Of a stretch of DNA of 64,000 nt, positions 5,132 to 46,137 are shown piece after piece. Every line of letters starts with the position of its first letter. Positions within the stretch are counted from its first letter, which is position 1. The stretch lies in NCBI GenBank assembly GCA_965227515.1, contig CBDDFZ010000001.1, positions 2,880,001-2,944,000 of the forward strand, read 5' to 3'. Under the pieces are notes generated by a model that saw only the letters and a list, made by a program, of their open reading frames with translations, did no database searches and was not told the origin of the DNA. The position numbers and the translations under genes were made by a program. This stretch comes from Alphaproteobacteria bacterium. Lineage in GTDB: Bacteria > Pseudomonadota > Alphaproteobacteria > CALKHQ01.

Positions 5132-6634
5132 ATGCCCAAGTTTGAGCGCGCCGTCGATCAGGCGCGGTTGGCGGTTATCGATATCGGCTCCAACTCGGTG
5201 CGGATGATCGTCTATGACGGCATGCACCGCGCCGCCCAGCCCATATTCAACGAGAAGGCGAATTGCGGGCTTGGGTCCCAGGCGGCCGAGCCAGGCATGC
5301 TGGACGACAAATCCATCGCGCGCACCGTCACCACACTGGTGCGCTTCTGTCGTATCGCACGGGCCATGGATGTGGCCGACATTGACGCGTTCGCGACGGC
5401 GGCCGTGCGCGATGCCAACAACCGTGACGCGCTGTTGGCCGCGATCGATCGCGCCTGCGGGCTGAAGGTCGAGGTGCTGAGCGGCGAGGACGAGGCCCGG
5501 ATGGCCGCGGCCGGCGTGCTGGCGTCCTTCCGGAACGCGACGGGTGTGACCGGCGACCTGGGCGGTGGCAGCCTGGAGTTGGTGGCGCTGGAGAACGGGC
5601 GGCAGGAGCGTCACGCGACCATGCCGCTGGGCGTCGTGCGGCTGATCGACGCCACCGGGGCCAAGCCGATCGCCATCGAGAGGGTGATCGAGGCCGAGAT
5701 GTCGCAACTGGCGTGGCTGGACGACGCCAAGTCGGACGTATTCTATGTTGTCGGTGGGGCATGGCGGGCGCTGGCGCGCACCTTCATGAACGCCATCGAC
5801 TATCCGCTGCACATTGTGCATGCGCTGCCGGTGCCCTGCGGCGACATGATCGACTTCGCCCGTGTGATCGAGCGCATGGACAGCTACGATGAGGGGCTGG
5901 TTCGCGGTCTGTCGCGCCGGCGCGTCGAGATGCTGCCGGTGGCCGCCACCCTGATGCGCGTGGTGCTCAATCATCTGCGCCCGAAGACCGTCGTGTTCTC
6001 GGCCCATGGCGTGCGGGAGGGACGGCATTTCCAGCGCCTGAGCGCCGCCGAGCAGGCCCGCGACCCTTTGCTGGCGGCGTGCACGGCGCTGGCCCAGGAC
6101 ACGCCGCGCTTCAAGCTGACCGCCGAGGATGTCTTCGACTGGATGTCGCCGGCATTCGGTGCGGAGACGGACGAGCAGCGCCGCTGGCGCCGCGCGGCGT
6201 GCGTGGTGGCCGATATCGGCTGGCGCCACCATCCGGACTACCGACCGGAACAGGTCTACCGCCGGTTGCTGCTGATGCCGGCTATGGGCCTAGACCACGA
6301 GGGCAGGGCGTTCCTCGCCGCCGCCGGCTTCGCGCGCCACTCCCACCATATCGACCATCCCTGCCTGAAGCCGTCTTTCGCGCTGTTGGAGGCGGACCGG
6401 CTGCGCGCCGCGTTCCTGACCGGAGCGGCGCAGCGATTGGCCTATGAATTGAGCGGGGGCGATCCGGCGGTGCTGAAAGCCTGCAGCCTGGAGCGCGAGG
6501 GCGACGACTTCGTGGTGACCGCCGACGATGTGTTGCCGGACATCATGGACCCGATCATCCAGCGGCGGCTGAACCAGATGTCGCGCCTGGTGGCGACCGA
6601 TGTCGGGGCGGTGGAGACGGCGGCGGTCGCCTGA
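5132..6634 (+). CDS. ppx: Exopolyphosphatase Ppx/GppA
   Basis: IDIGSNSVR, ATAAVRDA, DLGGGSLE, GVREG; directly follows ppk1. Confidence 0.94.
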   Translation: MPKFERAVDQARLAVIDIGSNSVRMIVYDGMHRAAQPIFNEKANCGLGSQAAEPGMLDDKSIARTVTTLVRFCRIARAMDVADIDAFATAAVRDANNRDALLAAIDRACGLKVEVLSGEDEARMAAAGVLASFRNATGVTGDLGGGSLELVALENGRQERHATMPLGVVRLIDATGAKPIAIERVIEAEMSQLAWLDDAKSDVFYVVGGAWRALARTFMNAIDYPLHIVHALPVPCGDMIDFARVIERMDSYDEGLVRGLSRRRVEMLPVAATLMRVVLNHLRPKTVVFSAHGVREGRHFQRLSAAEQARDPLLAACTALAQDTPRFKLTAEDVFDWMSPAFGAETDEQRRWRRAACVVADIGWRHHPDYRPEQVYRRLLLMPAMGLDHEGRAFLAAAGFARHSHHIDHPCLKPSFALLEADRLRAAFLTGAAQRLAYELSGGDPAVLKACSLEREGDDFVVTADDVLPDIMDPIIQRRLNQMSRLVATDVGAVETAAVA

Positions 6635-6659
6635 CCGTTGCCTCGCTGCGGCCTGGCGC

Positions 6660-7880
6660 TCAGGACGGGCTGGCAGCCCGTTCGAACACCTGGACTTCCT
6701 TGCCCTCGGCCGCCAGGCCCAGTTCGCCGCGTGCCACACGCAGCGCATCGGCGCCGAACACTTCGCCGCGCCAGCCTTGCAGGGCGCGCACCTTCGCCTT
6801 GGCCCCGAAGGCGGCGATATGCTCCAGGTCGTCGCCGGTGGCCAGCAGCTTCGGCGCCACGTCGTGCTTCTGGCAGCGCATCCGCAGCAGCACCTTCAAC
6901 AGGTCGACAATCGGGTCCAGGCCCGACGGCAGGTCGGCCCGCGACGGCAGTTTCGGTGCTGCGGAATCGGGAAGCTCCAATCCGCGCTCGACCGCGGCCA
7001 GGATATGGCGCCCCTGGTTGCCGCGCACCGCATTCTTGCCCAGACCGCGAGTGCGTTCCAGCGCCTCCACCGTCGTCGGCTGGCGGGCGGCGATCTCGGC
7101 CAGCGACTCGTCGCGCACGATCCGGTTGCGCGGCACGTCGCAGCGCTGCGCCTCGCGCTCCCGCCATGCCGCCAGCTCGCGCAAGACTTTCAGCACCTTC
7201 GGGCGCGCGTTGCGCACCTTGATCCGCCGCCAGGCGTCGCTGGGATCGGTCTCGTAGAGCGACGGGTCGGCCAGGGCGGCCATGTCGTCCGCCACCCAGT
7301 CCAGCCGACCCGACTTGCGCAGCCGATCCTGCATCGCCTCATAGACCGGCCGCAGATAGACCACGTCGCTCAGCGCATACTCCATCTGCTGCGCGCTCAG
7401 CGGGCGGGCGGCCCAATCGGTGAAGCGCGCGCCCTTGTCGATCCTGACGCCGGCCAGCTTGGAGACCAGGGTGTCATAGGCCGCCTGGTCGCCGAAACCG
7501 CAGACCATGGCCGCGATCTGGGTATCGAACACCGGCGCCGGCAACTTGTCGGACAGGCGCGCGAAGATCTCCATGTCCTGGCGCGCGGCGTGCAGCACCT
7601 TCACGATGCCCGGGTCGTGGAACAGCTCCAGGATCGGCGACAGGTCGATGCCGGGCGCCAGCGGGTCGATCAGCGCGCTGTGCTGGGCGCCCGCGACCTG
7701 CAACAGGCAGAGCTTCGGATAGTAGGTGCTCTCGCGATGGAACTCGGTGTCGACGGTGATGTAGTCGTCGCCCGCCACCGCCTCGCAGAACGCGGCAACC
7801 GCCGCGGTCTCGGTCAGCAGCACCAGTTGGCTTTCGTCGATGCGCGGTGGGGTCTGGCGCTGGCGTCGGTCGGCATTCAT
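6660..7880 (-). CDS. rnd: Ribonuclease D
   Basis: VDTEFHRESTYYPKLCLLQ, KVLHAARQD, FDTQIAA, TDWAARPL, YALSDV, followed by an HRDC region. Start could be 7904. Confidence 0.95.
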   Translation of the reverse strand: MNADRRQRQTPPRIDESQLVLLTETAAVAAFCEAVAGDDYITVDTEFHRESTYYPKLCLLQVAGAQHSALIDPLAPGIDLSPILELFHDPGIVKVLHAARQDMEIFARLSDKLPAPVFDTQIAAMVCGFGDQAAYDTLVSKLAGVRIDKGARFTDWAARPLSAQQMEYALSDVVYLRPVYEAMQDRLRKSGRLDWVADDMAALADPSLYETDPSDAWRRIKVRNARPKVLKVLRELAAWREREAQRCDVPRNRIVRDESLAEIAARQPTTVEALERTRGLGKNAVRGNQGRHILAAVERGLELPDSAAPKLPSRADLPSGLDPIVDLLKVLLRMRCQKHDVAPKLLATGDDLEHIAAFGAKAKVRALQGWRGEVFGADALRVARGELGLAAEGKEVQVFERAASPS

Positions 7881-7983
7881 GGTGAGAGGCGTTGTATAGA
7901 CCAATTCGCCGAATTGGGAAAACCGTTAGCGGTTGTCCCGGCCCATCGGGCAAGACCGGGCTCAAGAGTGTCGTTTCCGAAGT

Positions 7984-15239: not shown

Positions 15240-15315
<76 letters not shown>

Positions 15316-15453: not shown

Positions 15454-15546
15454 TCGGCCCTACGCCCCCAGCAGGCGCTGGTAGGTCTCGCGCACGGTCT
15501 GGCGCACCTTCTGCGGTTGCTCGTCCAGCGCCTGGGTCAGCGCCTT
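15454..15546 (-). repeat. 93-bp direct repeat, left copy (orphan 3' end of cbpM)
   Basis: Matches 25667-25759 except one C/G difference. Encodes KALTQALDEQPQKVRQTVRETYQRLLGA* on the minus strand. Confidence 0.95.
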
Positions 15547-15850
15547 ATCTCGTCGCGGACCGAGTTGCCGCAGCGAAGGGCCTGTCGCTGGTGGACTATC
15601 CCACCGCCCGTGCTCGGACACTCGCACATGAGTGGAACATGACCGAGGCGGGCGTCCGGAGACGGATCTTGCGCTTGTGGGACTGCATTCACAAGATGGC
15701 ACTGCCAAGTCACGTGATTGGCCAGATGATGATCTGATCTTGAAATATCAGGCGTGGCACGATTATCGACCAAATCCGCATCGCGTATGTGTCATTGTGG
15801 CCAAGAAAGTCTATAAATGCGCACCACTGTTAACGATATGGAATTGTTGA
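15546..15850 (+). pseudogene. Truncated, frameshifted C-terminal winged-helix-like gene remnant
   Basis: No start codon. One frame (15546-15737) reads YLVADRVAAAKGLSLVDYPTARARTLAHEWNMTEAGVRRRILRLWD; another continues DDDLILKYQAWHDYRPNPHRVCVIV (HTH plus wing-like). Confidence 0.4.
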
Positions 15851-16241
15851 GTCGTGGTATTATCTCTCGAGTTCTGTCTCACAACAAAATCATAACTGTA
15901 ACGAATGGAGCATAATATTCCAAAATTTTCACATATATATATTTATGCAGCGATTTGTCTTAACAACAATGGAATTCTCGTCACCTCATGGCGCGGAAGA
16001 CAAAAAAGAGACGGTTAGGCGTCGGCTGATGTGCTTGGTATTGCGCCAAAGTCAGATCGACGTATTTGCGCGAAACCATAGAAATGACTGAATTCAGTCA
16101 ATCCAATCCTTGGTCATCACTCACAGTATTGCGGATAAATTGCATCACGGGACTTTGAACAATCGCCCTGTACGCCATATCGCGGATGGTGCATAGTATT
16201 TGGCTTGCAAATCCGTCTTAGCTCGCTGTCGTGGGAACGCC

Positions 16242-16775
16242 ATGCCTACAGTGAGGATGGAAGATTGGCTTGAGCTACTGGGCCTGACCGGGTCGGTTCA
16301 GCAGCTCCTTGCCGGGCAGCGAACGCTCAGCGATGCGCGCGAGGACGTAGAGTCGGCCAAGACGACCTGGCCCGGCGTGTCCCAGGATTTCGTCTCTGTT
16401 CTGGACCAGTTGAATCCCTTCTTTGACGACGTCGCCGATGTCATTTCCGAACAACACGATCTGATTGACGAGTTCAATAATGCCGTTGGCGAGTTCGGGG
16501 AAACATTCCCGGCCCCACAGGATCGGCTTCTGAATGAAGAGGATCTGGGGGACATCGCCGACATCCGCGATGCGCTGCTGGATTTCCTGGCCGAACTCCA
16601 CAGCCAAATCGAGTCCATCGTCGACGAGATCGAAGACCTGCTCAACGAGCTCGAGTCCCAGCGAGGCGGTCTGGAGGAAGGCGATCCGTTCCTCGCCGAC
16701 GAAATCGCCGAGACGCTTGAGGAACTGGAAGAGCTGCAGGAGGCGCTGGAAGGCGAGGGGTGCCTGGGTCCATGA
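16242..16775 (+). CDS. Hypothetical strongly acidic alpha-helical protein
   Basis: D/E-rich heptad-like sequence. First gene of an ATGA-coupled operon; GGGA before ATG 16242. Confidence 0.75.
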   Translation: MPTVRMEDWLELLGLTGSVQQLLAGQRTLSDAREDVESAKTTWPGVSQDFVSVLDQLNPFFDDVADVISEQHDLIDEFNNAVGEFGETFPAPQDRLLNEEDLGDIADIRDALLDFLAELHSQIESIVDEIEDLLNELESQRGGLEEGDPFLADEIAETLEELEELQEALEGEGCLGP

Positions 16776-17137
16776 CCGATGTACCGCCGCCCTTTGCCAC
16801 CGGTGACCTTGCCGCCCCCCTGACCCTCCCGGCCAGTGACCCCGACGATCCCATGGCAAAGCTGAGGGCGCTTCAGGCGGAACGCCGCCGCCTGGAGTTG
16901 CGGCGTATCGAGCTGGTGGTCGAACTGACCAATGCGCGCCGGGTCGTGGCGCGGTTCGAACAAGAGGCTTCGGCATCGTTGCAGGGGCCGGTGGAAGCAA
17001 TCCTGTTTGCGCGTGCTGCGTCGAACGCGGCCGAACTCGCGATTGCCGCGCGCATCGTCGAGCAGCGGCTGCGCCATATCGAACTGGAACTGCCGTCCGC
17101 CTTCGGCCGCACCGCCCTGGAGGTGACCCGCCGATGA
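16772..17137 (+). CDS. Hypothetical Arg/Ala-rich coiled-coil protein
   Basis: ATGA overlaps with both neighbours; helical pattern LRALQAERRRLELRRIELVVELTNARR. Confidence 0.7.
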   Translation: MTDVPPPFATGDLAAPLTLPASDPDDPMAKLRALQAERRRLELRRIELVVELTNARRVVARFEQEASASLQGPVEAILFARAASNAAELAIAARIVEQRLRHIELELPSAFGRTALEVTRR

Positions 17138-17667
17138 CCTTCCCGCCCGACACTCCGCTGCTGGACTGCGACCGTGTCGGCCTGCTTTGGGCGGAGGACT
17201 ATCTGCCCGCCGTCATCGCTGCGATCGAGGGGGCAAGAACGCGACTGGACGTTGCCATGTTCATTCTGGCGGTCGGCACAACGACACGGGCGCTGGACCG
17301 GGTGCGCGACCTGGCCGACATCTGCGCGCGGGCCCACCATCGCGGCGTCGCTTGCCGCGTCCTCATCAATGATTTTACCGAAGACGAAGAATTGCCGGTG
17401 CTGAACCTGGTCGCCGGCCACTATCTGGCGGCCGCCGATGTGCCCGTGCGCCAGTACCGAAGCGATCGGCACAGCAGCATTCATTCCAAGTATGCGTTGA
17501 TCGACGACGACAACGCCTTCGTCGGCAGCGGAAATTGGACCGGCGGCGGCTTGATGGCCAATCTCGAGGCATCGGTGCATGCGGTGTCGGCGCCGCTGGT
17601 GGCGATCCTGCGACGCCGCTTCGACAACGACTGGCAACGCGCTGCGATGCTGGAGCGCCTACCATGA
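17134..17667 (+). CDS. Phospholipase D-superfamily protein, single HKD (Nuc-like)
   Basis: HSKYALID-x6-GSGNWT and ANLEASV; N-terminal IEGARTRLDVAMF. No signal peptide. Confidence 0.88.
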   Translation: MTFPPDTPLLDCDRVGLLWAEDYLPAVIAAIEGARTRLDVAMFILAVGTTTRALDRVRDLADICARAHHRGVACRVLINDFTEDEELPVLNLVAGHYLAAADVPVRQYRSDRHSSIHSKYALIDDDNAFVGSGNWTGGGLMANLEASVHAVSAPLVAILRRRFDNDWQRAAMLERLP

Positions 17668-19346
17668 ACGTGCTGCCCAACATGGCTCCGGAGGCTGCAC
17701 TGCTAACCGGACTGCTCGACCGCTGGCTGCCGGGCGCAAACCTTACGCACAGGCAATGGTGGTCTCTGCGCCGCGCGGTCATCCGCATCGGCAGTGCGCT
17801 GGGCGTTGTCGACGAACTGGCCAGGCTGCCCTTCGAGCAGGGCACGGTGTCCTACCAATCGAAAGTCATTGCCGAGGGCGTTGATGCCCTGGTGCGGCGC
17901 AGCGTCGACGTGGGCCCGACCGAGGCGGTGCCGTTCGCCGTCGCCGCAGCCGGCGGGGCATCCCCGGTGGCGGGAGTCGTGCCGGCCGAAATCGTGCCGC
18001 GCCTCGACATCAATGCTGCCGATACGGACCAGTTGGCCGGCCTGCCCGGGCTCGGGGGAGTCAGCGCCCGGCGTATCGTGGCACGACGGGACGCGCGTGG
18101 CCCCTATGTCGACCTGGAGGATGCGCGAAGGGCCGGCAACGTCTCCAAGGCGGCGTTCGCGCGCGCGACCGTTCACCTGTATGTCGGTGCCGCCGTGCCG
18201 CCCCGGTCCCAATTGCGCGAGACCGAACTGATCCAACGTGGCGGACTGAGCGCGTATCTGCAGCTATGGCAGGACGGTCGCCTCAGCACCCCGCACCTCA
18301 GCGCTGAGACGGCAGAGGACGCGCTGGTGACGCTGGTGCAGGGTTTTGCTGCCGCGGTGCGCGCCAAACCGGCGGTTCCGCGGCTTTGGGCGCCAGGCCG
18401 CCGCCGGCTGCGACGCGGCTCTCGGGCGCTTGGGCGCGCGACGGAACTGGAAGCCGCGATGGCGACCGATGCGCAGGTCGCACCGATCTTCAGTTCCGGC
18501 TATCTGCCGAAGCTCGTCGCCACGATCGATGCGGCCACCGCCACCGTCATTGCGTCCATGTTCTACTTCACGGTCGGCGAAGCAGATGTGGAGACCGACC
18601 CGGGGGACGAGATCGTCACGGCGCTGGAGCGGGCGATTGGGCGGGGAGTCGATGTGCGCCTGATCCTCGACGACGACGTGCCGACCGACCGGCACGGCGC
18701 CCAGCTTGTCAACGCGACCACGTTCTCCGTTCTCGAGGCCAAGGGGATTCCGTTCCGGCGGGATCATCTGGAGGTGACCTCTCACGCAAAGGCCATCGTG
18801 GTCGATGCACAGAACGCCATCGTCGGCAGTCATAATTGGACCGCGTCGTCGTTCTTCCGCTACCAGGAAACGTCCCTGTTCGTCAGGTCGAACGATTTCG
18901 GCCAGACGCTGTTCGAGCGACTGTCCCGGCGCTGGCAGATGCTGGCCCCCAAGAACGAGCGCATCGTGCCGGTCGAGCACCTGGAGAGCCTGGACTCCGA
19001 CCAGAAGGGCGCGGTCTTGGCCGCCGGCCTGGCCGATGGGCCGGCCTTTGTGAGTGCCACACGGCTGAAGGCGCAGCGCGATGCGCTGGTGGAGCCGCTC
19101 TTAATGGGCGAAGACGACATCGCGAACGTGCGGCGCATCGTCAATCTGATGCAGACCTTCCCCATCTCCGAGACGGCGGCCGTGGCGTTGATCGGCGATG
19201 GATTGGACTCAGCCAGCGAGGTGCGGCGGGCCACCGCCGCGCGCTTGCAGCAGGCATTCGCCAGGATGCCGGCACTGCCGGAGCCGTTCGGGCTGCGCGA
19301 GATATTGCCGGAAGTCGCGGACCGGCTGGCGGCCGAGGAGGGTTGA
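17664..19346 (+). CDS. Fusion of ComEA-like helix-hairpin-helix, single-HKD PLD and DUF4332-like C-terminal domain
   Basis: LDINAADTDQLAGLPGLGGVSARRIVARRDARGPY (HhH); HAKAIVVD-x6-GSHNWT..YQETS (PLD). The C-terminal two-fold pattern VEHLESL..AAGL / LMQTFPISETAAVALIGDGLDS resembles DUF4332 (weaker call). Start at the ATGA overlap. Confidence 0.8.
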   Translation: MNVLPNMAPEAALLTGLLDRWLPGANLTHRQWWSLRRAVIRIGSALGVVDELARLPFEQGTVSYQSKVIAEGVDALVRRSVDVGPTEAVPFAVAAAGGASPVAGVVPAEIVPRLDINAADTDQLAGLPGLGGVSARRIVARRDARGPYVDLEDARRAGNVSKAAFARATVHLYVGAAVPPRSQLRETELIQRGGLSAYLQLWQDGRLSTPHLSAETAEDALVTLVQGFAAAVRAKPAVPRLWAPGRRRLRRGSRALGRATELEAAMATDAQVAPIFSSGYLPKLVATIDAATATVIASMFYFTVGEADVETDPGDEIVTALERAIGRGVDVRLILDDDVPTDRHGAQLVNATTFSVLEAKGIPFRRDHLEVTSHAKAIVVDAQNAIVGSHNWTASSFFRYQETSLFVRSNDFGQTLFERLSRRWQMLAPKNERIVPVEHLESLDSDQKGAVLAAGLADGPAFVSATRLKAQRDALVEPLLMGEDDIANVRRIVNLMQTFPISETAAVALIGDGLDSASEVRRATAARLQQAFARMPALPEPFGLREILPEVADRLAAEEG

Positions 19347-19347
19347 G

Positions 19348-22300
19348 ATGGGCTACCTTCCACACCCGCATTACGCCGAGCAGGACCCGAATAATTCGGA
19401 GGTCATCCACTTCTACGAGACACACTACTCGGACGATCGCGACGATTGGACCCAGATCGGGTTCGGCACGCTGCCGGATGGCCTGACCTGGGACGAGTGG
19501 GTGGAGGGATTCGAGAACAACGAGGGCGTTCCGCTGGAAAACTTCGTCCCGGTCGATCCAGACGCCGGGGAGGGCGATGGAGACGGCCTGCCGGCGGGTG
19601 GAGAAGGCGATGGCGACGAATTGCCAGGGGATGGCGAAGGCGATGGGGGTGCCGGCGGCACGGTGGGCGACTCCGGTGATGGCGATGGCGACGCCGGGGA
19701 CGGCGACAGTGGCGATGGCGATTCCGGTGATGGCGATTCCGGCGATGGCGATTCCGGCGATGGCGCCAGCGGCGATGGCCAGGGCGACGGCGGGCAAGGC
19801 GACGGCCAGGGCGATGGCGGTGGTGGCGGCACCGGCGCCGCCGGTGAAGGCACGGGCGTGCAGGACAGCTTCATCGCGTTCTGCAAAGCCCTCATGGAGG
19901 ACTATGAGTCCGCGCTCGACAACCTGAACGACCTGGGCGAGCAGGTGCCCAGCGGCGGCGGCGAAGACGCTGCCGCGGAAGCCATCGGCATCAGCGAGGA
20001 GATCGGCGATCTTGCCGGTGTTCTGGAAGACCTGAACAGCGAGACGGAAGCGCTGACGTCTGCGTTGGGGCGCGGCCAGCTGGCATTGAATGGATTGCAT
20101 GACTCGGTCGGCGGCATCGACGGTGGCGACATCCTGTCCGACACGCCGTCGGTCTCGATTCAGCAGTTTGAGGAGCCGCCGGAGTTCGCGGAAACCGGCG
20201 GTGAGCCGGTCGCGCTGTCATCGGGCGCGTTCCAGAACGTTACGGTCGACCTGGTGATCCCGTCGGTGGGCGTGGATTTCGATGTCACCCGCATCTACAG
20301 CAACCAAGTCTACAATGCCGGGTCTTTCGGTGCGAAGTGGGATGTCTGGTTCGACGCCAACGTGCGCGAGCTCAGCAGCGGACTGGTCTATCTGTGGAGC
20401 GGCCAGGCGCGCGGCTGGTTCCTCAGCCCGGACGGGCCGAACGACTATGACGGCGGGGTCGGCTTCCGACACCGGTTCGTGCGTGCCGGCGGCGGCTGGG
20501 AGTTGCGCGATCGCACCGGATTTGTCTGGGTGTTCGACGGCGATGGGCACCTGTCCGAGCGCAGGGACCGGTTCGGCAATTTCATTCGCGTCAACCGCAA
20601 TGGCGACGGCCTGATTGTCGGCCTGGAGGACACCAACGGGCGCACCCTGACCGTGTCCCGCGACACGGCCGAGCGGGTTACCGAGATTGCCGACTGGACC
20701 GGGCGTGTCTGGCAGTACGACTATGACGGGCAGGTGCTGAGCGCGGTCACGCTGCCGGCAACGACCGATCATCCCGGCGGCCGGGTGATTCGGTACAGCT
20801 ATGATTCACCCGGACCGCCCCAGATGCGCGCCAACCTGGTGTCGATCGACAGCCCGGTCGGCTCCGAACTGGTGGCCAACATCTACGGCACGTCGGTTGA
20901 CGGCTTCAACAAGGTGATCGAGCAGGACTTCGCCGGCGACGACCATCAGTTCGAATACGAGGTCGTCAACGACGACATAGACGCGGAGGTGGTGAACCGT
21001 CACCAGTTGTCCCACCGCACCACCCATACCGACGGGCGCGGCATCGTCCACATCCATGAATTCAATGTGTTCGGTGGCCTGCTGGAGACGCGCACACTGT
21101 CACAGGGTATCGCCACCAATGCGCCGTCCAACTGGCGGTTCGCGTTCCAGTACGACACCTTGCTGCACAATCAGGAGATCGTCCTGCCCGGCGGTTCGAT
21201 CCTCCGTTTCAACTACGATCTCGGCGCCGGCGATCCGTTGGCGCGCCACGATATCCTGCAGATACGCCACGTGCCCAGCGACGGCGGCACCCACGCGGTC
21301 CACCGCTTCGAATACGGGGCCTTCGGCCAGGTGACCCGGTTCGAGGACCCGCTGGGCAATGTGTTCGAGATCGACGTCGACAACATGGGCCGTCCCACGC
21401 GGTACACGGGGCCGTCGGCCGAACTGGCGACTGGCGGCAGCCACACGCCGATCGTTGACACCGTTTATGATGCGCGCGGCCAGATCGTGAGCATCGCCAG
21501 CGCCGAGGGTGTCACCCACAGCTTCGAATACGAAGGCGGTGGCCAGAACGCCGGCCGTCTGGTGCGTCAGCGCCGCAACGGGACGCAGATCGCACAGTAC
21601 GATCGCGATGCCTTGTGGCGCGTCACCGGGTACACGGACGAGGCGGGTCATCTCTTCACGCTGCAATGGGATGCCGCCGACCAGGTGACGATGGAACTCG
21701 GCCCGACCGGCACCCACGTCAGGCGCAGGTACCGCTATGACGAGGCCGGCAGCCTGGTTGCGGTGGGCGAGCGCAACATCAACGAGAACGGGGTGGTCGG
21801 CTTCCCGGTCTTCGTCGAGACCACGTTCGAGCGTGACGTTCGCGGCCGTGTCACCGCGGTCCACCAGCCGATCGAAAGCGGCGTTTCGGCGGAAACGCTG
21901 ATCGAATGGGACGCCGACAACCGCATCGTCGAGGTGATCGATCCGGAAGGTGTCTCTACGCGTTGGGTCTGGGACGAGCGTGGCCTGATCCACGAGCGCA
22001 TCACGGCGGCGGGCACCAGCCGCGAGGCGGTCGAGCGCTTCGCGCACAACCTGGATGGACTGATCTCGTCGTACGCTGATCCGAATGGGAATGCGCGTAG
22101 TTACGCGTACGACGGCTACCTTCATAACGCGTCCATGCAGAGTCCGGACGGCACCACGGCGCGATGGGCGTTCGACCGCGCCGGGCGGCTGACCCGCGCC
22201 GATGTTGAGGACGGCGCCGGCATCCTGCGCGAACGTCACCGCTTCGACTACGACGCGCTTGGCCGTGTCATGCGCGTGCGACAGCGGGTCATCGAACCGG

Positions 22301-25300
22301 ACGGCATTGCCGTTGCCACCCTGGCCAACGAGGTCGCGTACGACCGGGACGGGCACCCGGTGGCGCTGATCGACGCCGATGGCGGCCGCCATGACATCGC
22401 CTGGAACGCGGCCGAAGACGTTGTTTCCGTGACCGATCCCTCCGGTGACCCGACGCTCTTCGAATACGATCCGCGCGGCCTGATGACACGCATGACCAGT
22501 GTCGGCACCGACACGGCCACCGGTGCGACGTCGGTTGTCAGCCACAGCTTTGCCCACGATGCGCTTGGGCGCCTGACCTCGGCGACCGACGGGCTCGGCA
22601 ACGCCGATCGCTACACTTACGACGGCCGCAACCGGTTGACTCAGTTGGAGCGGCCCGCCGGCGTGATCGAGGAATATGCCTACGACCTGGCCGGCCGCAT
22701 GACCCAGCGGCGCATCGCGAGGGTGCGCCCCAATGGCATCCCGTTGTCCGACGTGGTCGAGCTCGTCGGCTACGACCTTGCCGGACGGCCCGTGCGGCTG
22801 CGCGATGGCGGCGGCAATGAGATCGAAATCACGCGCGACGCCATGGGGGATGCGACCAGGATCGACCTGCCCGACTTCACATACGCTCAGTACGAATACG
22901 ATGCCGCCGGCAACCCGATACGCGTGCAAGACGGCCGCGGAACGGTCGTCGAGATCGATTATGACGGCCTCAACCGGCCAGTCCGCCAACAGGTCGTAAC
23001 GGCAGCCGGCGCGCTCGGCGCCACCGATGAAGAGTTCGAATACGATGCGACCGGCAATCTGGTGCGGGCGGAAAATGCCAGCCACGTTGTCGAGCGAACC
23101 TTCGATTCGCTGGGCCGGCTGCGCAGCGAAGAGGTCGATGGACGAACCGCCACCCGCACCTATCGCGCCAACGGCTTGCCCCGGGACCTGGCCTATCCGT
23201 CGGGGTTCCGGTTACGCGCCAGCTTCGACGACGCGCATCGGCTGCGCGACCTGAGTATCGTCTCGGCCGGCAGCGGGTTTCCAGGTGGAGCGTTGCCGCC
23301 GGACCCGCTGCTCCACTGGGACTATCGGGCCGAGGTTTTCCCCTCACGGCTAACCACAGCCGGCGGCGCCGAGCAGCGCATCGGCTACGATGCCGCGGGG
23401 CGAGACTTGGAAATCGCGGTCGCGACAACGGCGGGGCCGGACGAGCACCTGGTCAATCTGCGTGACGGGTTTGGGCGCATTCGCATGCGATTGCGCGACA
23501 GCCTTCACACCACGGCGGCCAGGTACGAGAGTACCGGCTGGCTCAGCAGCGTTGCGCAAGGCGCGGCGCCCGCACTTCCTGGCCTCTCCAATTGGCGGCC
23601 GACCGGCAACAGCGCCAACCCCAACCCGGCGGGCGATCAGAACTCGCTCAACGTGCTGGCGGCGAGCCTGGATCCCGCCGTACCTGACCGCAGCGACGAC
23701 TACGCCTACGACAGCCGCGGCAACCGAACGTCGCACACCCGCGCGGAAGGTGGCGTGGACAATACGGTGTCATGGACCTACGACGATTCAAGCCGGGTGA
23801 CATCGATGTCCGGCGCGTCTGTGACCTCCGACGGGGCCGGCAACGTGCGCGACGACGGCGTACATCGCTACAGCTATGACCACGCCGGGCGGTTGACCAG
23901 GATTGAGCCCACCGGTGGCGGTGCGGCTCTGGTCGAGATCAGCCGCGACGCGTTGGGCCGGGCGATCGAGGTGACGACGCCGTCTGGCACCCGTCGCCGG
24001 TTCTACGCGGTTCTCGACCTGATCGAGGAAACGACGGCGACCGGCAGCTTGCTGGCGCTCTACGTTCCCGGCACCAGCATCGACCAGCCGCTGGTTGCCT
24101 TCGCGGGCGGTGACGTCGCGTTTGCGCATCAGGACTCGGTCGGCACCGTTTTCGCGACGACGGACCGTGACGGCCGCCTGCAGCACCGCTATGTGCGCGA
24201 CGAGTTCGGGCAGGTGCTCGGCACTCTGGCGGCGGATGGCTTGCCGCTGCCAGCAGGAACTGACATCTACCCGTTCGGTTTGCAGGGCCGCGATGCCTGG
24301 ACCGACGATCCGATCGTCGTCGATTATCGTGCCCGCGTGATGCGCGCCGATTGGGGTCGGTTCCTGCAGCCCGATCCATTGGGGCTGGCCGGCGGCGCGA
24401 ACGTCTATCAGTTCGTTGGCAACAACCCGCTGCTGTACGTTGACCCGACGGGCGAGCTCGCGTTCCTGCTTGCAGGCATCCTGGCGGGTGCGCTGATCGG
24501 CGGCGGCGTCGCGGCGTGGTTCAACCGCGACAAGTCCGGCTGGGACTTCTGGGTGCCGGTGATCGGCGGGGCGGTGGGCGGCGCGGTGATGGGGTCCGGC
24601 CTGGGTCTGGCCGGGTTCGTTGCCGGGGGCGCCATCAGCGGCGGTATCGTTGGCAGCTATGAGGGCTACAAGGCCGGTGGCGTGAAGGGGGCGATAATCG
24701 GCGGCACCTTTGGCACCGTGTTCGGCGGATTGGCTGGGGGCGTCGGCGGCTCGGTCGGGCGCAGCGTCACAACGCGCTTTACCGGCCAGATTACCAACAG
24801 CCTGATCGGGCGGATGTCGGGCCAGAGCGCCTATGCCGTGGGCTCCTATGCCGGTGCCGGCCTTGGCGCCGCGGCGGGCGGCGGCGCTGGCGGCGGCATC
24901 AATGGCTTCGGCAATGGCGTGGGGCAGTCGCTCGCCGCCGGTCAGGATGTCGGGGATTCGCTGCGCAATGGCGCAAACGCCACGCTGCCCGGCGTTGGCT
25001 ACGGCCTGGCAACCGGCGTCGTCTCCGGCGTCGGCACCAAGGGCCTGATGCAAGCGGGCAGCTACCACGGATTCAAAGGCGGGCCGACCTGGCTCAGCGG
25101 TCGGAACAGCCGTGCCGGCGTCATCGGCGCCGAGGGCGAGTTCTTTGTCGGCCAATCCATTGGGCAGCGTGCCAACACCGCGTTCCGTACACCTGGCGGC
25201 AAGATCCCGGACTTCTGGGGCCGCGTGCGCGCGGAGGTCAAGAACACCGCCAAGGTGCCGACGCTCAACCAACAACGCGGGCAATTGCGGCAGTTCATTG

Positions 25301-25470
25301 CCGCCAATCGTGGTGCCGGGTCGGACCCGTTCCAGCTCTTCCTGCGGCCGGGTGTGACGCCGCCGCCGCGTGGCGGGGTGATGGGACAGGTCAATGCCGG
25401 CAATCTGGTGCTGCGGACGATCCCGCACTACGCCTATCCGGCGCTGGCGAGCCTGCCGCTGGGCTGCTGA
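19348..25470 (+). CDS. Rhs/YD-repeat protein (2040 aa) with C-terminal PD-(D/E)xK nuclease-like toxin domain
   Basis: DUF6531-like GEPVALSSG..DL..TRIYSNQ..FGAKW, many YD repeats, core end GRFLQPDPLGLAGGANVYQFVGNNPLLYVDPTG, Gly-rich hydrophobic segment, tip GAEGE..GKIPD..EVKN..QLRQF. Confidence 0.92.
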   Translation: MGYLPHPHYAEQDPNNSEVIHFYETHYSDDRDDWTQIGFGTLPDGLTWDEWVEGFENNEGVPLENFVPVDPDAGEGDGDGLPAGGEGDGDELPGDGEGDGGAGGTVGDSGDGDGDAGDGDSGDGDSGDGDSGDGDSGDGASGDGQGDGGQGDGQGDGGGGGTGAAGEGTGVQDSFIAFCKALMEDYESALDNLNDLGEQVPSGGGEDAAAEAIGISEEIGDLAGVLEDLNSETEALTSALGRGQLALNGLHDSVGGIDGGDILSDTPSVSIQQFEEPPEFAETGGEPVALSSGAFQNVTVDLVIPSVGVDFDVTRIYSNQVYNAGSFGAKWDVWFDANVRELSSGLVYLWSGQARGWFLSPDGPNDYDGGVGFRHRFVRAGGGWELRDRTGFVWVFDGDGHLSERRDRFGNFIRVNRNGDGLIVGLEDTNGRTLTVSRDTAERVTEIADWTGRVWQYDYDGQVLSAVTLPATTDHPGGRVIRYSYDSPGPPQMRANLVSIDSPVGSELVANIYGTSVDGFNKVIEQDFAGDDHQFEYEVVNDDIDAEVVNRHQLSHRTTHTDGRGIVHIHEFNVFGGLLETRTLSQGIATNAPSNWRFAFQYDTLLHNQEIVLPGGSILRFNYDLGAGDPLARHDILQIRHVPSDGGTHAVHRFEYGAFGQVTRFEDPLGNVFEIDVDNMGRPTRYTGPSAELATGGSHTPIVDTVYDARGQIVSIASAEGVTHSFEYEGGGQNAGRLVRQRRNGTQIAQYDRDALWRVTGYTDEAGHLFTLQWDAADQVTMELGPTGTHVRRRYRYDEAGSLVAVGERNINENGVVGFPVFVETTFERDVRGRVTAVHQPIESGVSAETLIEWDADNRIVEVIDPEGVSTRWVWDERGLIHERITAAGTSREAVERFAHNLDGLISSYADPNGNARSYAYDGYLHNASMQSPDGTTARWAFDRAGRLTRADVEDGAGILRERHRFDYDALGRVMRVRQRVIEPDGIAVATLANEVAYDRDGHPVALIDADGGRHDIAWNAAEDVVSVTDPSGDPTLFEYDPRGLMTRMTSVGTDTATGATSVVSHSFAHDALGRLTSATDGLGNADRYTYDGRNRLTQLERPAGVIEEYAYDLAGRMTQRRIARVRPNGIPLSDVVELVGYDLAGRPVRLRDGGGNEIEITRDAMGDATRIDLPDFTYAQYEYDAAGNPIRVQDGRGTVVEIDYDGLNRPVRQQVVTAAGALGATDEEFEYDATGNLVRAENASHVVERTFDSLGRLRSEEVDGRTATRTYRANGLPRDLAYPSGFRLRASFDDAHRLRDLSIVSAGSGFPGGALPPDPLLHWDYRAEVFPSRLTTAGGAEQRIGYDAAGRDLEIAVATTAGPDEHLVNLRDGFGRIRMRLRDSLHTTAARYESTGWLSSVAQGAAPALPGLSNWRPTGNSANPNPAGDQNSLNVLAASLDPAVPDRSDDYAYDSRGNRTSHTRAEGGVDNTVSWTYDDSSRVTSMSGASVTSDGAGNVRDDGVHRYSYDHAGRLTRIEPTGGGAALVEISRDALGRAIEVTTPSGTRRRFYAVLDLIEETTATGSLLALYVPGTSIDQPLVAFAGGDVAFAHQDSVGTVFATTDRDGRLQHRYVRDEFGQVLGTLAADGLPLPAGTDIYPFGLQGRDAWTDDPIVVDYRARVMRADWGRFLQPDPLGLAGGANVYQFVGNNPLLYVDPTGELAFLLAGILAGALIGGGVAAWFNRDKSGWDFWVPVIGGAVGGAVMGSGLGLAGFVAGGAISGGIVGSYEGYKAGGVKGAIIGGTFGTVFGGLAGGVGGSVGRSVTTRFTGQITNSLIGRMSGQSAYAVGSYAGAGLGAAAGGGAGGGINGFGNGVGQSLAAGQDVGDSLRNGANATLPGVGYGLATGVVSGVGTKGLMQAGSYHGFKGGPTWLSGRNSRAGVIGAEGEFFVGQSIGQRANTAFRTPGGKIPDFWGRVRAEVKNTAKVPTLNQQRGQLRQFIAANRGAGSDPFQLFLRPGVTPPPRGGVMGQVNAGNLVLRTIPHYAYPALASLPLGC
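19678..19818 (+). repeat. Imperfect 15-bp coding tandem repeat (GDGDS/GDGQG) in Rhs N-terminus
   Basis: Run of GGCGATGGCGATTCC-like units. Confidence 0.8.
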
Positions 25471-25557
25471 CCGGTCACGTCCTGGTCGGATCAGGCTTCA
25501 TCACCACGGGGCCAAGCCCGCCGCGGTGAGTGCAGCCTTGCAGATCGTGCATACGTT

Positions 25558-25614
25558 GTGAGCGCAGGAACAGGGCGTGAGCGCAGGAACAGGGCGTGAG
25601 CGCCGGACCAGGGC
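25558..25614 (+). repeat. 3 x 19-bp tandem repeat GTGAGCGCAGGAACAGGGC
   Basis: Two identical copies (25558-76, 25577-95) and one with 2 mismatches (25596-614); no spacers. Confidence 0.9.
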
Positions 25615-25666
25615 TGCGTATCAAGACCCTGTGCCTCGAAACCGCCGTTTGGACCGAGCTCGATGC

Positions 25667-25759
25667 TCGGCCCTACGCCCCCAGCAGGCGCTGGTAGGTC
25701 TCGCGGACGGTCTGGCGCACCTTCTGCGGTTGCTCGTCCAGCGCCTGGGTCAGCGCCTT
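25667..25759 (-). repeat. 93-bp direct repeat, right copy (functional 3' end of cbpM)
   Basis: Matches 15454-15546 with one mismatch. Confidence 0.95.
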
Positions 25760-26011
25760 GAACTCGCGGCGCATGCCGTAGAGCTGGTCGAGCAGCGACA
25801 GCACAACCGGCACGGCGTCGTCGTTCAGGTTCATCTCTTCCTTCAGTTCGCAGACCAGGCGGACGCGCTCAACGTCCAGATCGTCGAACCTGGGGCCGGA
25901 GGTGCTTGTCGCCGGCACCACCCAGCCATTGCGCACCCACAGCCGCAGCCGGCGGAGCGTGATGCGGTCGACCTCGGCGACGACCTGGGTCTCGGTCCAC
26001 ATGGTGGTCAT
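25673..26011 (-). CDS. cbpM: Chaperone modulator CbpM (MerR-like)
   Basis: LRLWVRNGWVVP..FDDLDVERVRLVCELKEEMNLN..VVLSLLDQL; ATGA overlap with the cbpA stop. Confidence 0.88.
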   Translation of the reverse strand: MTTMWTETQVVAEVDRITLRRLRLWVRNGWVVPATSTSGPRFDDLDVERVRLVCELKEEMNLNDDAVPVVLSLLDQLYGMRREFKALTQALDEQPQKVRQTVRETYQRLLGA

Positions 26012-26955
26012 GACGCCCTCCCGAACGCGCCGCGCGGGTCGTAGTGGTTCTTTTCCCGCCACGTCTGCATGAACGCCTCAAGCTCCGGATCGATCCGGCG
26101 CGGCATAACCACCTTCAGCACCACACGCTGGTCGCCGGCGCCCGATTTGGCCTTCACGCCGCGCCCCTTCAGCCGCAGGGTATCGCCGCTGGTGGCGCCT
26201 TTCGGCACCGTCATGCTGACCCGACCGCCGATGGTCGGCACCTCCACCTTGCCGCCCAGCACCGCCTCGTCGATGGAGATCGGCACCTCGACCACGATGT
26301 CGTTGCCGTCGCGGCTGAACACGGCGTGGGGGCGGACGGTGATGTCGATCAGCGCGTCGCCGGCGGGGCCTTCGCCCAGCCCGGCACCGCCCTTGCCCTT
26401 CAGCCTGAGGGTGCTGCCGTCGCGGGTGCCGGGCGGGATCGTCAGGTCCAGCGCATTGCCGTCGGGCATGGTGATGCGTTGCTTGGTGCCGTTGACGGCG
26501 TCCAGGAAGTCGACCTCCAGGTGGTAGCGCGCGTCCGCTCCACGGGCGTGAAAGCCGTGCCCGCCCTGCGCCCCGCCGCGCCGGCCGCCACGGGCCTGGG
26601 CCCGCTCGCCGAACAGGTCGGAGAAGATGTCGGAATAGTTGGCGAAATCCTCGAACCCGGCGGAGCTCGCATAGCGCTGCCCGCCATCGCCCTCGGCATA
26701 GTGGCGATAGCGCGGCTGCTGTGCGCGTTCCGCACCCGAGGCATCGATCTCGCCACGGTCGAAGCGCGCGCGCTGCTCGGCATCGCTCAACAGATGATAG
26801 GCAGCCGACACCTGCTTGAATCGCTCCTCGGCCGCCTTGTCGCCGGGGTTCAGGTCCGGGTGCAGCTCCTTGGCGAGCTTGCGGTAGGCCTTGCGGATAT
26901 CGGCCTCGGACGCGGACTTCTCCACGCCCAGTACGGTGTAGGGATCGTCAGCCAC
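26008..26955 (-). CDS. cbpA: DnaJ-class chaperone CbpA
   Basis: J domain DPYTVLGV..HPDLNPG, C-terminal DnaJ_C (LRLKGKG, LRLKGRG), no Zn finger; paired with cbpM. Confidence 0.9.
   Translation of the reverse strand: MADDPYTVLGVEKSASEADIRKAYRKLAKELHPDLNPGDKAAEERFKQVSAAYHLLSDAEQRARFDRGEIDASGAERAQQPRYRHYAEGDGGQRYASSAGFEDFANYSDIFSDLFGERAQARGGRRGGAQGGHGFHARGADARYHLEVDFLDAVNGTKQRITMPDGNALDLTIPPGTRDGSTLRLKGKGGAGLGEGPAGDALIDITVRPHAVFSRDGNDIVVEVPISIDEAVLGGKVEVPTIGGRVSMTVPKGATSGDTLRLKGRGVKAKSGAGDQRVVLKVVMPRRIDPELEAFMQTWREKNHYDPRGAFGRAS

Positions 26956-46133: not shown

Positions 46134-46137
<4 letters not shown>
40543..46137 (+). CDS. Giant acidic repeat protein, probable type I secretion substrate
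   Basis: GAGG just before the ATG, no signal peptide, D/E/V/G/A-rich, GGxGxDxLx RTX-like nonamers, ATGA-coupled to the ABC transporter. Confidence 0.8.
42625..45840 (+). repeat. Coding tandem array: nine 315-bp (105-aa) units plus shorter ~84-bp units
   Basis: GGCGACACCGAC anchor at 42931, 43246, 43561, 43876, 44449, 44764, 45079, 45394, 45709. Confidence 0.93.

Follow-up and report, generated by a model that had tools for sequence, protein, structure and literature searches.

A rare, conserved five-gene unit around an Rhs-caged nuclease in an alphaproteobacterial genomic island

Rhs cages have been understood as packaging for toxins of the type VI or type VII secretion systems (T6SS, T7SS) or of the Tc type, with immunity whenever the target is bacterial. 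What might be the role of a complete Rhs nuclease that travels with four conserved partners, no immunity gene and no recognisable export route? This question is raised by an operon at positions 16242-25470 (+) of a 64,000-nucleotide stretch from an Alphaproteobacteria bacterium (GenBank assembly GCA_965227515.1, contig CBDDFZ010000001.1, positions 2,880,001 to 2,944,000). The whole stretch analysed is called the window here. The analyses firmly identified a rare, horizontally mobile, conserved and co-evolving five-gene unit built around an Rhs-caged nuclease. It adds a new and conserved accessory set to the known kinds of Rhs toxin system, and the modes of action considered below are inferred.

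The operon contains five co-oriented, translationally coupled open reading frames (ORFs) in 9.2 kb, all on the plus strand. The g1 gene (16242-16775) encodes an acidic helical protein of 177 aa (pI 4.05); g2 (16772-17137) encodes a helical protein of 121 aa with an Arg-rich helical part, which belongs to no family; g3 (17134-17667) encodes a phospholipase D (PLD) family protein of 177 aa with a single HKD motif (HSKYALIDD...GSGN); g4 (17664-19346) encodes a 560-aa fusion of a helix-hairpin-helix (HhH) region, a PLD domain and a helical tail; and g5 (19348-25470) encodes the Rhs protein of 2040 aa. The g1/g2, g2/g3, and g3/g4 pairs are joined by ATGA overlaps at 16772, 17134, and 17664, respectively, and a single base (19347) separates the g4 stop codon from the g5 ATG at 19348. 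The start codons chosen for g1 and g5 are backed by alignment of their homologues. The gene order and junctions agree with those given in the first-pass annotation of this DNA. The protein types it named (single-HKD PLD, HhH and PLD fusion, and Rhs) were borne out by family scans and by the intact HKD motifs in g3 and g4. The arrangement was shown to be more than chance, because it is kept in other phyla. No sigma-70 consensus was found by the promoter scan, and terminator-like sites were no commoner than in shuffled sequence.

Homologues of the operon are very rare. Only four relatives of g4 were found among 5.8 billion clustered proteins. No g4 was found among 40 related genomes, where the 3 matches in 41 genomes were the own genome and two weak matches to the PLD part only. 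A scan of genome contigs with an alignment of close relatives returned nothing; a wider family alignment recovered relatives. The scans of metagenome and genome contigs together identified full-length relatives in three groups. These are two soil metagenome loci (L005 and L006, the latter cut by the contig end), a metagenome locus (L007) with a Dehalococcoidia metagenome-assembled genome (MAG; L024), and a Thermoleophilia MAG (L023) with a Gaiellaceae MAG (L033, cut by the contig end). The g1, g3, g4, and g5 genes stand in the same order in these loci, with 30-43% identity in tblastn searches with the proteins of the window. The g2 equivalents were identified by position, as a helical ORF of about 105 aa in every locus; g2 is the least conserved gene, with 18-34% identity. 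All five genes are complete and in the same order in five loci (the window, L024, L007, L023, and L005). The coupling is also kept, with GTGA overlaps joining g3 and g4, and a one-base overlap of g4 and the Rhs gene in L005 and L007. The hosts span three phyla with differing cell envelopes: a T6SS-bearing proteobacterium, a Chloroflexota MAG, and Actinomycetota MAGs. Searches of viral contigs with g4 and with the nuclease tip returned no relative. The flanks of the homologous loci hold housekeeping or unrecognised genes, and no mobile-element genes were seen beside the operon. Two of the outcomes named as refuting in the first-pass annotation were thus checked, and neither was seen: the genes co-occur elsewhere, and the homologous operons, which extend to MAGs of Chloroflexota and Actinomycetota, do not belong to the cargo of T6SS, extracellular contractile injection systems (eCIS) or Tc loci. 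Therefore, the self-contained character claimed in the first-pass annotation is supported by the conserved gene order and by the flanks.

The g5 protein is the only Rhs protein of the genome. It matches RHS_repeat PF05593 (192.9 bits), TIGR01643 (187.6 bits), DUF6531 (30.5 bits), and the Rhs_assc_core TIGR03696 (49.8 bits versus a cut-off of 32.5). Near the N-terminus there is an acidic, Gly-rich low-complexity linker (residues 71-215; 19558-19992; D+E 27%, G 35%, K+R 1%), which is coded by imperfect GGCGAT-type repeats and has like linkers in the homologues. It overlaps acidic helices (residues 178-270; 19879-20157) that are predicted to form a bundle with residues 49-177 of g1. The DUF6531 domain, which usually stands before Rhs repeats, covers residues 285-349 (20200-20394). 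The shell ends at the Rhs-associated core (residues 1656-1702; 24313-24453), which has DPLGL and YVDPTGE motifs. The DPLGL and DPTGE sequences lie at residues 1676-1703, and a DPxGL autoproteolysis motif ahead of the cargo indicates a putative cleavage. A Gly/Ala-rich hydrophobic region follows (residues 1700-1896; 24445-25035; G 30%), which is conserved in the homologues and contains one strong transmembrane (TM)-like segment at residues 1700-1726 (Kyte-Doolittle hydropathy, KD19, 2.2) and weaker ones to residue 1770. The protein aligns to its homologue in L024 over residues 2-2030, and to that in L023 over residues 262-2037.

The last 144 residues of g5 (1897-2040; 25036-25467) form a restriction-endonuclease-like nuclease tip, with the motifs G-x-E-G-E...I-P-D...E-V-K-N-T...Q-L. 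In 11 sequences, the G-x-E-x-E, P-D, (D/E)-x-K-N-T, and Q-L residues are invariant or near-invariant. The signature given for Tox-REase-7 in the available part of its description is GxxxE, IxD, ExK, and Q (PMC3482391), and the tip contains all four elements in this order (G-A-E-G-E, I-P-D, E-V-K, and Q-L). Its closest neighbours by language-model features are Tox-REase-7, -3, -5, and -2 (Atlas score 0.94, 161 shared features). The hhalign comparison of the tip with two Tox-REase-7 domains placed motif on motif, with E 0.0035 and a probability of 9%. The window's tip did not match the Pfam model PF15649 at E<=5, and 2 of the 11 relatives match it weakly (best E 0.053). The AlphaFold2 model, made from 5 sequences, has a predicted local distance difference test score (pLDDT) of 38, and a profile search of the PDB with the tip returned noise only (E>0.6). 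Together, the motifs support a Tox-REase-7-like nuclease, in line with the PD-(D/E)xK-like tip that had been claimed. The tip diverges along with the rest of the Rhs protein, and is therefore not polymorphic. Its profile matched 18 of the 1.84 billion protein representatives searched (E<=1e-3). The matches inspected are C-termini of Rhs proteins of 1900-2000 aa with the same layout, or fragments, except P0028, the weakest match, which has a signal-like N-terminus (by eye) and no Gly-rich region. The tip is thus almost confined to the Rhs family of this operon. The g5 protein ends in Cys (25465-25467), as do 11 of 20 inspected C-termini of Rhs homologues.

The two helical proteins differ in what can be said of them. 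The g1 protein, of which only five relatives were found (as rare as those of g4), has conserved DW..LLG, W/F-P-G-x-S-Q-D, and DRLL motifs. The W-P-G turn reads F-P-G or F-P-D in the Dehalococcoidia-type loci. A conserved 'GC' stands 2-4 residues from the C-terminus in g1 and its five closest relatives (16761-16763 in the window). Matches to DUF948 (27.3 bits) and WXG100 (20 bits, E 8.6e-4) are both under their cut-offs (27.3 bits for WXG100), and the PADLOC matches of g1 are of coiled-coil type only (E>1e-3). The g2 protein had no match in the family scans or in PADLOC, and its scores in the protein-feature (Atlas) search were at chance level (<=0.80). It had been described as basic; this holds only for its Arg-rich helical part, and the overall pI is 6.6. 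A complex was predicted for g1, g2, and Rhs residues 1-285, with the Rhs part scored as partner and with three controls. The pairing of g1 with the Rhs N-terminus gave an ipSAE interface score of 0.78 versus 0.00 for the best control. This mark was attained by 58 of 80 solved complexes and 2 of 110 mismatched pairs, counts that hold roughly because own alignments were used in the complex prediction. Contact agreement between the runs was at least 49%, and the partner pLDDT was at least 55. The confident interface is predicted between g1 residues 49-177 and Rhs residues 178-270, with g2 outside it. Thus, g1 is the predicted bundling partner of the acidic N-terminal helices of the Rhs protein, beside DUF6531. 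The one interaction probed in silico thus links the Rhs N-terminus to g1 and not to the PLD proteins; the gating of the cage by a DNA-binding PLD module, put forward in the first-pass annotation, is a conjecture.

The g3 and g4 proteins both match PLDc_2 (73.6 and 70.3 bits, respectively), with the motif HxK(x4)D(x6)GSxN. The HKD motif is kept in 7 of 8 homologues of g4 (it reads H-E-R in L023), and the HSK core in all six homologues of g3. The g4 protein consists of an N-terminal three-helix domain (structure model), a ComEA-type HhH region at residues 114-168, a helical middle part (structure model), a single-HKD PLD domain of Nuc-like fold at residues 284-424 (PLDc_2 match and structure model), and an all-helical C-terminal domain at residues 445-557. 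The HhH region matches HHH_3 (36.4 bits versus a cut-off of 27), and its PDB matches include ComEA, Tex, and EEPD1; g4 thus carries ComEA-type HhH repeats that are putatively DNA-binding. The helical tail of the DUF4332-like part that had been claimed is present in the structure model, but the DUF4332 match itself (17.9 bits) is under the Pfam cut-off of 23.2. In the g4 model (pLDDT 83), the PLD domain has its best fold match in Nuc (1byr, TMt 0.77); the second-best fold match is 7e0m, the phospholipase D of Serratia plymuthica, and further matches are Zucchini, NucT, and PLD3/4. The best NCBIfam and PADLOC matches of g3 and g4 are DrmC and MkoB, via the PLD domain, and the cut-off of the DrmC equivalog NF038319 (133 bits) was not attained (42.3 and 41.5 bits). 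The DNA of the two HKD motifs (17498-17542 in g3 and 18799-18843 in g4) is 76% identical over 45 nt, and the proteins share 28% identity overall. This resemblance could reflect an old duplication inside the operon. Since Nuc and other known enzymes with a single HKD motif work as dimers, g3 and g4 may together build one heterodimeric active site.

Some of the homologous loci have an additional neighbour. An Exo_endo_phos_3 gene of the endonuclease/exonuclease/phosphatase (EEP) type adjoins the operon in four loci. It follows the Rhs gene in L005 (7-nt overlap) and L023 and stands divergently upstream of g1 in L033 and L007; neither L024 nor the window's genome has it. A related EEP gene is divergent to a PLD gene with two HKD motifs in five Flavobacteriales-type loci. 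The EEP and PLD genes lie on the contigs L060/L012 (7235-10675), L057 (7726-11179), L017 (1719-4480), and L070 (144-3468). Three of the four scanned PLD proteins (L060, L017, and L070) carry a C-terminal sorting domain of the type IX secretion system (T9SS), and DUF5689 was found in L060, L057, and L070. The Flavobacteriales-type EEP and PLD proteins may be a recurrent secreted pair. A contig of a Hadarchaeota MAG (L025, 4362-8953) encodes a single-HKD PLD and an HhH-PLD fusion without any Rhs. Its neighbours are an Amidase_2 protein, a chaperone-like protein of 126 aa (weak matches to TY-Chap1 and AIPR_N), and a radical-SAM protein of 492 aa matching the pVip (viperin) model (4e-15). Upstream of the EEP gene in L007, an ORF of 642 aa (6000-7928, +) has weak PADLOC 'Effector phospholipase' matches (E 5e-5). 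The syntenic ORF in L024 (785 aa), unlike this counterpart, has no match.

The repeat-bounded island that had been claimed is real. In the window (GC ~67%), 10.2 kb lie between two copies of a 93-nt direct repeat (15454-15546 and 25667-25759) that have sharp edges and differ at one position. A tRNA-Lys (CTT) gene (15240-15315, +; ARAGORN) stands 138 nt left of the left repeat. The right repeat overlaps the true 3' end of a cbpM-like MerR_2 gene (25673-26062, -), which was the insertion target and is located downstream of its neighbour, a DnaJ-like gene (26008-26955, -). The left repeat, which marks the left boundary, is a duplicate of this 3' end, and the ORF at 15460-15708 (-) shares its last 29 residues with the cbpM-like gene. 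Since the right repeat is the genuine end and the left one a stranded duplicate, the 10.2 kb entered the cbpM-like gene at its 3' end, which was regenerated. The one-base difference between the repeats gives the insertion a recent look. In the leader (15547-16241, +; about 700 nt), GC is lower (0.59) and there is no credible gene. The island was found to contain no integrase and, besides the five genes, no credible ORF (none >112 aa). A 19-nt unit (GTGAGCGCAGGAACAGGGC) occurs three times in tandem (25558-25614) in the stretch that separates the Rhs stop from the right repeat, just inside the right end of the island. In the DnaJ-like gene, the identity to three genomes of the same family is only about 70%; these relatives are too distant for the uninterrupted tRNA-Lys/cbpM junction to be recovered from them.

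Searches for immunity and export genes gave mostly negative results. There is no credible ORF in the 196 nt (25471-25666) between the Rhs stop and the right repeat. The absence of an immunity gene claimed in the first-pass annotation therefore holds downstream of the Rhs gene, but g1 or g2 might still be an upstream-encoded immunity protein. The claimed absence of signal peptides is borne out by hydropathy only (maximum KD15 over residues 1-45 <=1.4), with no dedicated predictor; by the same measure, the five proteins have no hydrophobic N-terminus, and no TM segment except in the C-terminal region of the Rhs protein. No VgrG, PAAR or Eag domain was found in the five proteins, and the island has no TcA-like gene, in agreement with the earlier claim for the island. 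The window's genome has a T6SS, as TssC (VipB) genes are present about 1.1 Mb away (own genome ~4003749-4006252, 312653-313162), and PAAR_motif (PF05488) had 0 matches in this 99.7%-complete genome. An ordinary T6SS Rhs protein was considered and rejected, with no PAAR, VgrG or Eag at hand and no PAAR in the genome. Four host genomes carrying the cassette were searched for a T7SS, namely the window's genome and three MAGs, the completeness of the MAGs being not known. None of the four had EccC (TIGR03924) over the cut-off, a WXG100 match or a multi-domain FtsK-like ATPase; each had one strong FtsK-type match (PF01580), in open frames of 388-1258 aa. The hosts have no specialised secretion system in common, and the island has no secretion or lysis gene.

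How might the unit work? We tentatively place first, with a probability well short of even, a self-contained conflict system that centres on a caged toxin and would act within its producer, in an abortive manner or against mobile DNA. A lethal, membrane-active nuclease would be sequestered in the Rhs shell, and therefore no classical immunity gene would follow. At its N-terminal end, the cage may be held by the helical module of g1 and g2. The PLD pair, putatively DNA-binding, would form the arm that senses or degrades nucleic acid, together with the EEP protein in many relatives, and its engagement with foreign DNA would be coupled to cargo release. This intracellular role is ranked slightly first because the unit moves between envelope types without an export or immunity gene, because the cargo does not diversify, and because the partners resemble nucleic-acid enzymes of defence systems. 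We are more doubtful that the unit represents a new Rhs class needing neither a secretion machine nor an immunity protein, in which the cage would be an intracellular safe for a membrane-active nuclease, and the helical adaptor at its N-terminal end would open it once foreign DNA is engaged by a heterodimeric, DNA-binding HKD nuclease.

Several points weigh against an intracellular role. We know of no Rhs or YD-shell protein that acts inside its producer; the characterised ones are delivered or surface toxins. The substrate of the PLD domains (DNA or lipid) is not readable from the fold, and the second match, 7e0m, is a lipid PLD. The hydrophobic segment ahead of the toxin is more simply read as a device for crossing the target membrane. 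The pVip match beside the Hadarchaeota PLD pair spans only the radical-SAM core. PADLOC 2.0 returned generic PLD matches and no system-specific protein (g2 and g5 had no match), and the flanks of the homologous loci have no defence-island character, with two weak or generic PADLOC matches among 10 flank proteins. Thus, neither the defence-island enrichment nor the PADLOC system named as checks in the first-pass annotation was found. Titles and abstracts retrieved for Rhs with anti-phage, defence or abortive-infection terms held nothing relevant. Helical partner genes with a helical N-terminal domain are also the layout of T7SS substrates, in the available part of PMC11217815. Finally, the available part of PMC13018210 reports that chimeric shells were unprotective and that immunity is near-universal in bacterial teneurin-like proteins (TLPs), so that a cage replacing immunity is an unsafe assumption.

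An exported toxin with private helpers is almost as likely as the intracellular system, and is likewise held as a possibility only. The Rhs protein would leave the producer when part of the population lyses, in vesicles or along a route yet to be recognised, and would hit other bacteria or eukaryotic grazers. The hydrophobic Gly-rich segment would carry the nuclease over the target membrane; g1, and perhaps g2, would be a chaperone or adaptor, or one of them an upstream-encoded immunity protein; the PLD pair and EEP might aid release as membrane phosphodiesterases or degrade outside DNA. The anatomy of g5 fits a complete Rhs toxin, with DUF6531, YD repeats, the DPxGL core, and a tip with conserved catalytic residues, and the TM-like segment before the tip is conserved in the family. 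Acidic Gly/Asp-rich linkers such as that of g5 are common in extracellular Ca-binding proteins, and a missing immunity gene would suit a eukaryotic target, as for Tc toxins. P0028, the nearest outlier with the same tip type, has a Sec-like N-terminus by eye and therefore may be an ordinary secreted Rhs. The T9SS sorting domain on the two-HKD PLD beside the Flavobacteriales EEP indicates that the EEP/PLD pair works outside the cell there. All characterised Rhs proteins are delivered toxins, as far as the available parts of PMC3482391 and PMC13018210 go, and the latter also reports YD shells that did not shield E. coli from chimeric cargo. However, a signal-like N-terminus is missing from all five proteins, the island has no secretion or lysis gene, and its hosts lack a common specialised secretion system. 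A non-polymorphic tip without a following immunity gene is atypical for interbacterial toxins, and a DNA-binding HhH region on a cytoplasmic PLD has no obvious export role.

Two further explanations are much less probable. The unit might be a T7SS-type substrate cassette, with g1 and g2 as Lap- or WXG100-like partners and the Rhs helices as an LXG-like part, which works in monoderms via a divergent T7SS and is stranded and inert here. The W-P-G turn of g1 and its sub-threshold WXG100 match, the predicted long helical bundle of g1 with the Rhs N-terminus, and the recent look of the insertion, with repeats one base apart, speak for it, as do Rhs proteins with small helical partners at T7SS loci (PMC11217815, available part). 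We consider it improbable, given that none of the four host genomes had EccC over the cut-off, a multi-domain FtsK-like ATPase or WXG100 (within the completeness of the three MAGs, which is not known), that all five ORFs, including the 2040-codon g5, are intact in the proteobacterial host, and that the PLD pair and the missing immunity gene are foreign to T7SS toxin loci. Least probable of all, with very little weight, is an addiction or stabilisation module that keeps the island without any role in defence or attack, in which the caged nuclease would be the toxin and an upstream protein the labile antidote. A single-cargo island with direct repeats at the 3' end of a gene near a tRNA, a patchy spread over phyla, and the lack of a separate immunity gene would suit such a module; a 9-kb operon with a 2040-aa shell is extravagant for this purpose, no mobile-element genes were seen beside the other loci, and the island has no integrase.

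If the intracellular role holds, this would be the first Rhs cage for cell-autonomous immunity, portable between monoderm and diderm hosts. If the protein is exported, there would be a new way for an Rhs toxin to leave and enter cells with these helpers alone. The system is small (9.2 kb) and clonable, and its parts have clear catalytic residues. Its ecological weight is limited because it is rare (about 18 clusters among 1.84 billion protein representatives).

Elsewhere in the window, an ORF at 40543-46137 (+) encodes an extremely acidic, repetitive protein of 1864 aa, rich in D, G, V, and A, with no Pfam match at E<0.5. Units like GDDLVEQAAGDVLGAVDGALGDA are repeated in it, and a PDNPDNPDNP run is found in the N-terminal part. 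The region has a strong GC skew of about 0.19-0.22 over 42-46 kb.

The literature searched, with supplementary tables (e.g. those of PMC3482391 and PMC11217815) outside the search, contained no description of this combination of genes. In the available parts of the papers, DUF4332 was not found together with Rhs, and Rhs appeared together with PLDc_2 only in T6SS surveys. The unit shares features with several known systems. The PAAR-Rhs effectors of the T6SS, for example RhsA, Tse5, and Rhs1-type proteins, have the same DUF6531-type region, YD shell, core with DPxGL, and C-terminal nuclease cargo. Unlike these, the island has no PAAR, VgrG or Eag and no downstream immunity gene, the cargo is not polymorphic, and the family is also present in Chloroflexota and Actinomycetota MAGs. 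The N-terminus of g5 is also different, with a small domain, the acidic linker, and the predicted g1-binding helices. In the TcB-TcC proteins of Tc toxins, a YD-repeat cocoon encloses an autoproteolysed toxic C-terminus and there is no immunity gene. The cocoon, the toxic C-terminus, and the lack of immunity are shared with g5, but the island has no TcA-like translocator, g5 has no β-propeller or SpvB-type Pfam match, and its cargo is a nuclease with its own hydrophobic segment.

The partner proteins and the tip can be compared in the same way. The available part of PMC11217815 reports that T7SS loci may contain Rhs toxins accompanied by genes for small helical partners. As in T7SS LXG/Rhs toxins, small helical genes stand just upstream, a helical N-terminus is predicted to bundle, and g1 has a WxG-like turn. 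Unlike T7SS toxins, the WXG100 match of g1 has 20 versus 27.3 bits, no EccC/EssC or WXG100 was found in the four host genomes searched, two PLD genes stand between the partners and the toxin, and there is no immunity gene. With Nuc, NucT, Zucchini/MitoPLD, and DrmC, the g3 and g4 proteins have the fold and the HxK...D...GSxN motif in common; unlike these single-HKD nucleases, two different single-HKD genes are always adjacent, and one is fused to the ComEA-type HhH and a helical tail. DrmC of DISARM is the best NCBIfam/PADLOC neighbour of both, yet at 42 versus 133 bits. The tip shares the signature of Tox-REase-7 (PF15649), whose Pfam model is not matched by the window's domain at E<=5, and none of the Tox-REase-7 immunity families ImmHEAT, Imm23, and Imm54 is near g5. 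The TLPs have variable C-terminal toxins, nearly all with an immediately downstream immunity gene, and their chimeric YD shells failed to protect E. coli from the cargo in a 2026 study (PMC13018210, available part). Like the present family, the TLPs described there are rare and patchy YD-shell toxins in Gram-negative and Gram-positive phyla. Unlike the TLPs, as far as that description goes, the family found here has no variable toxin or downstream immunity gene, and carries four conserved upstream partner genes instead.

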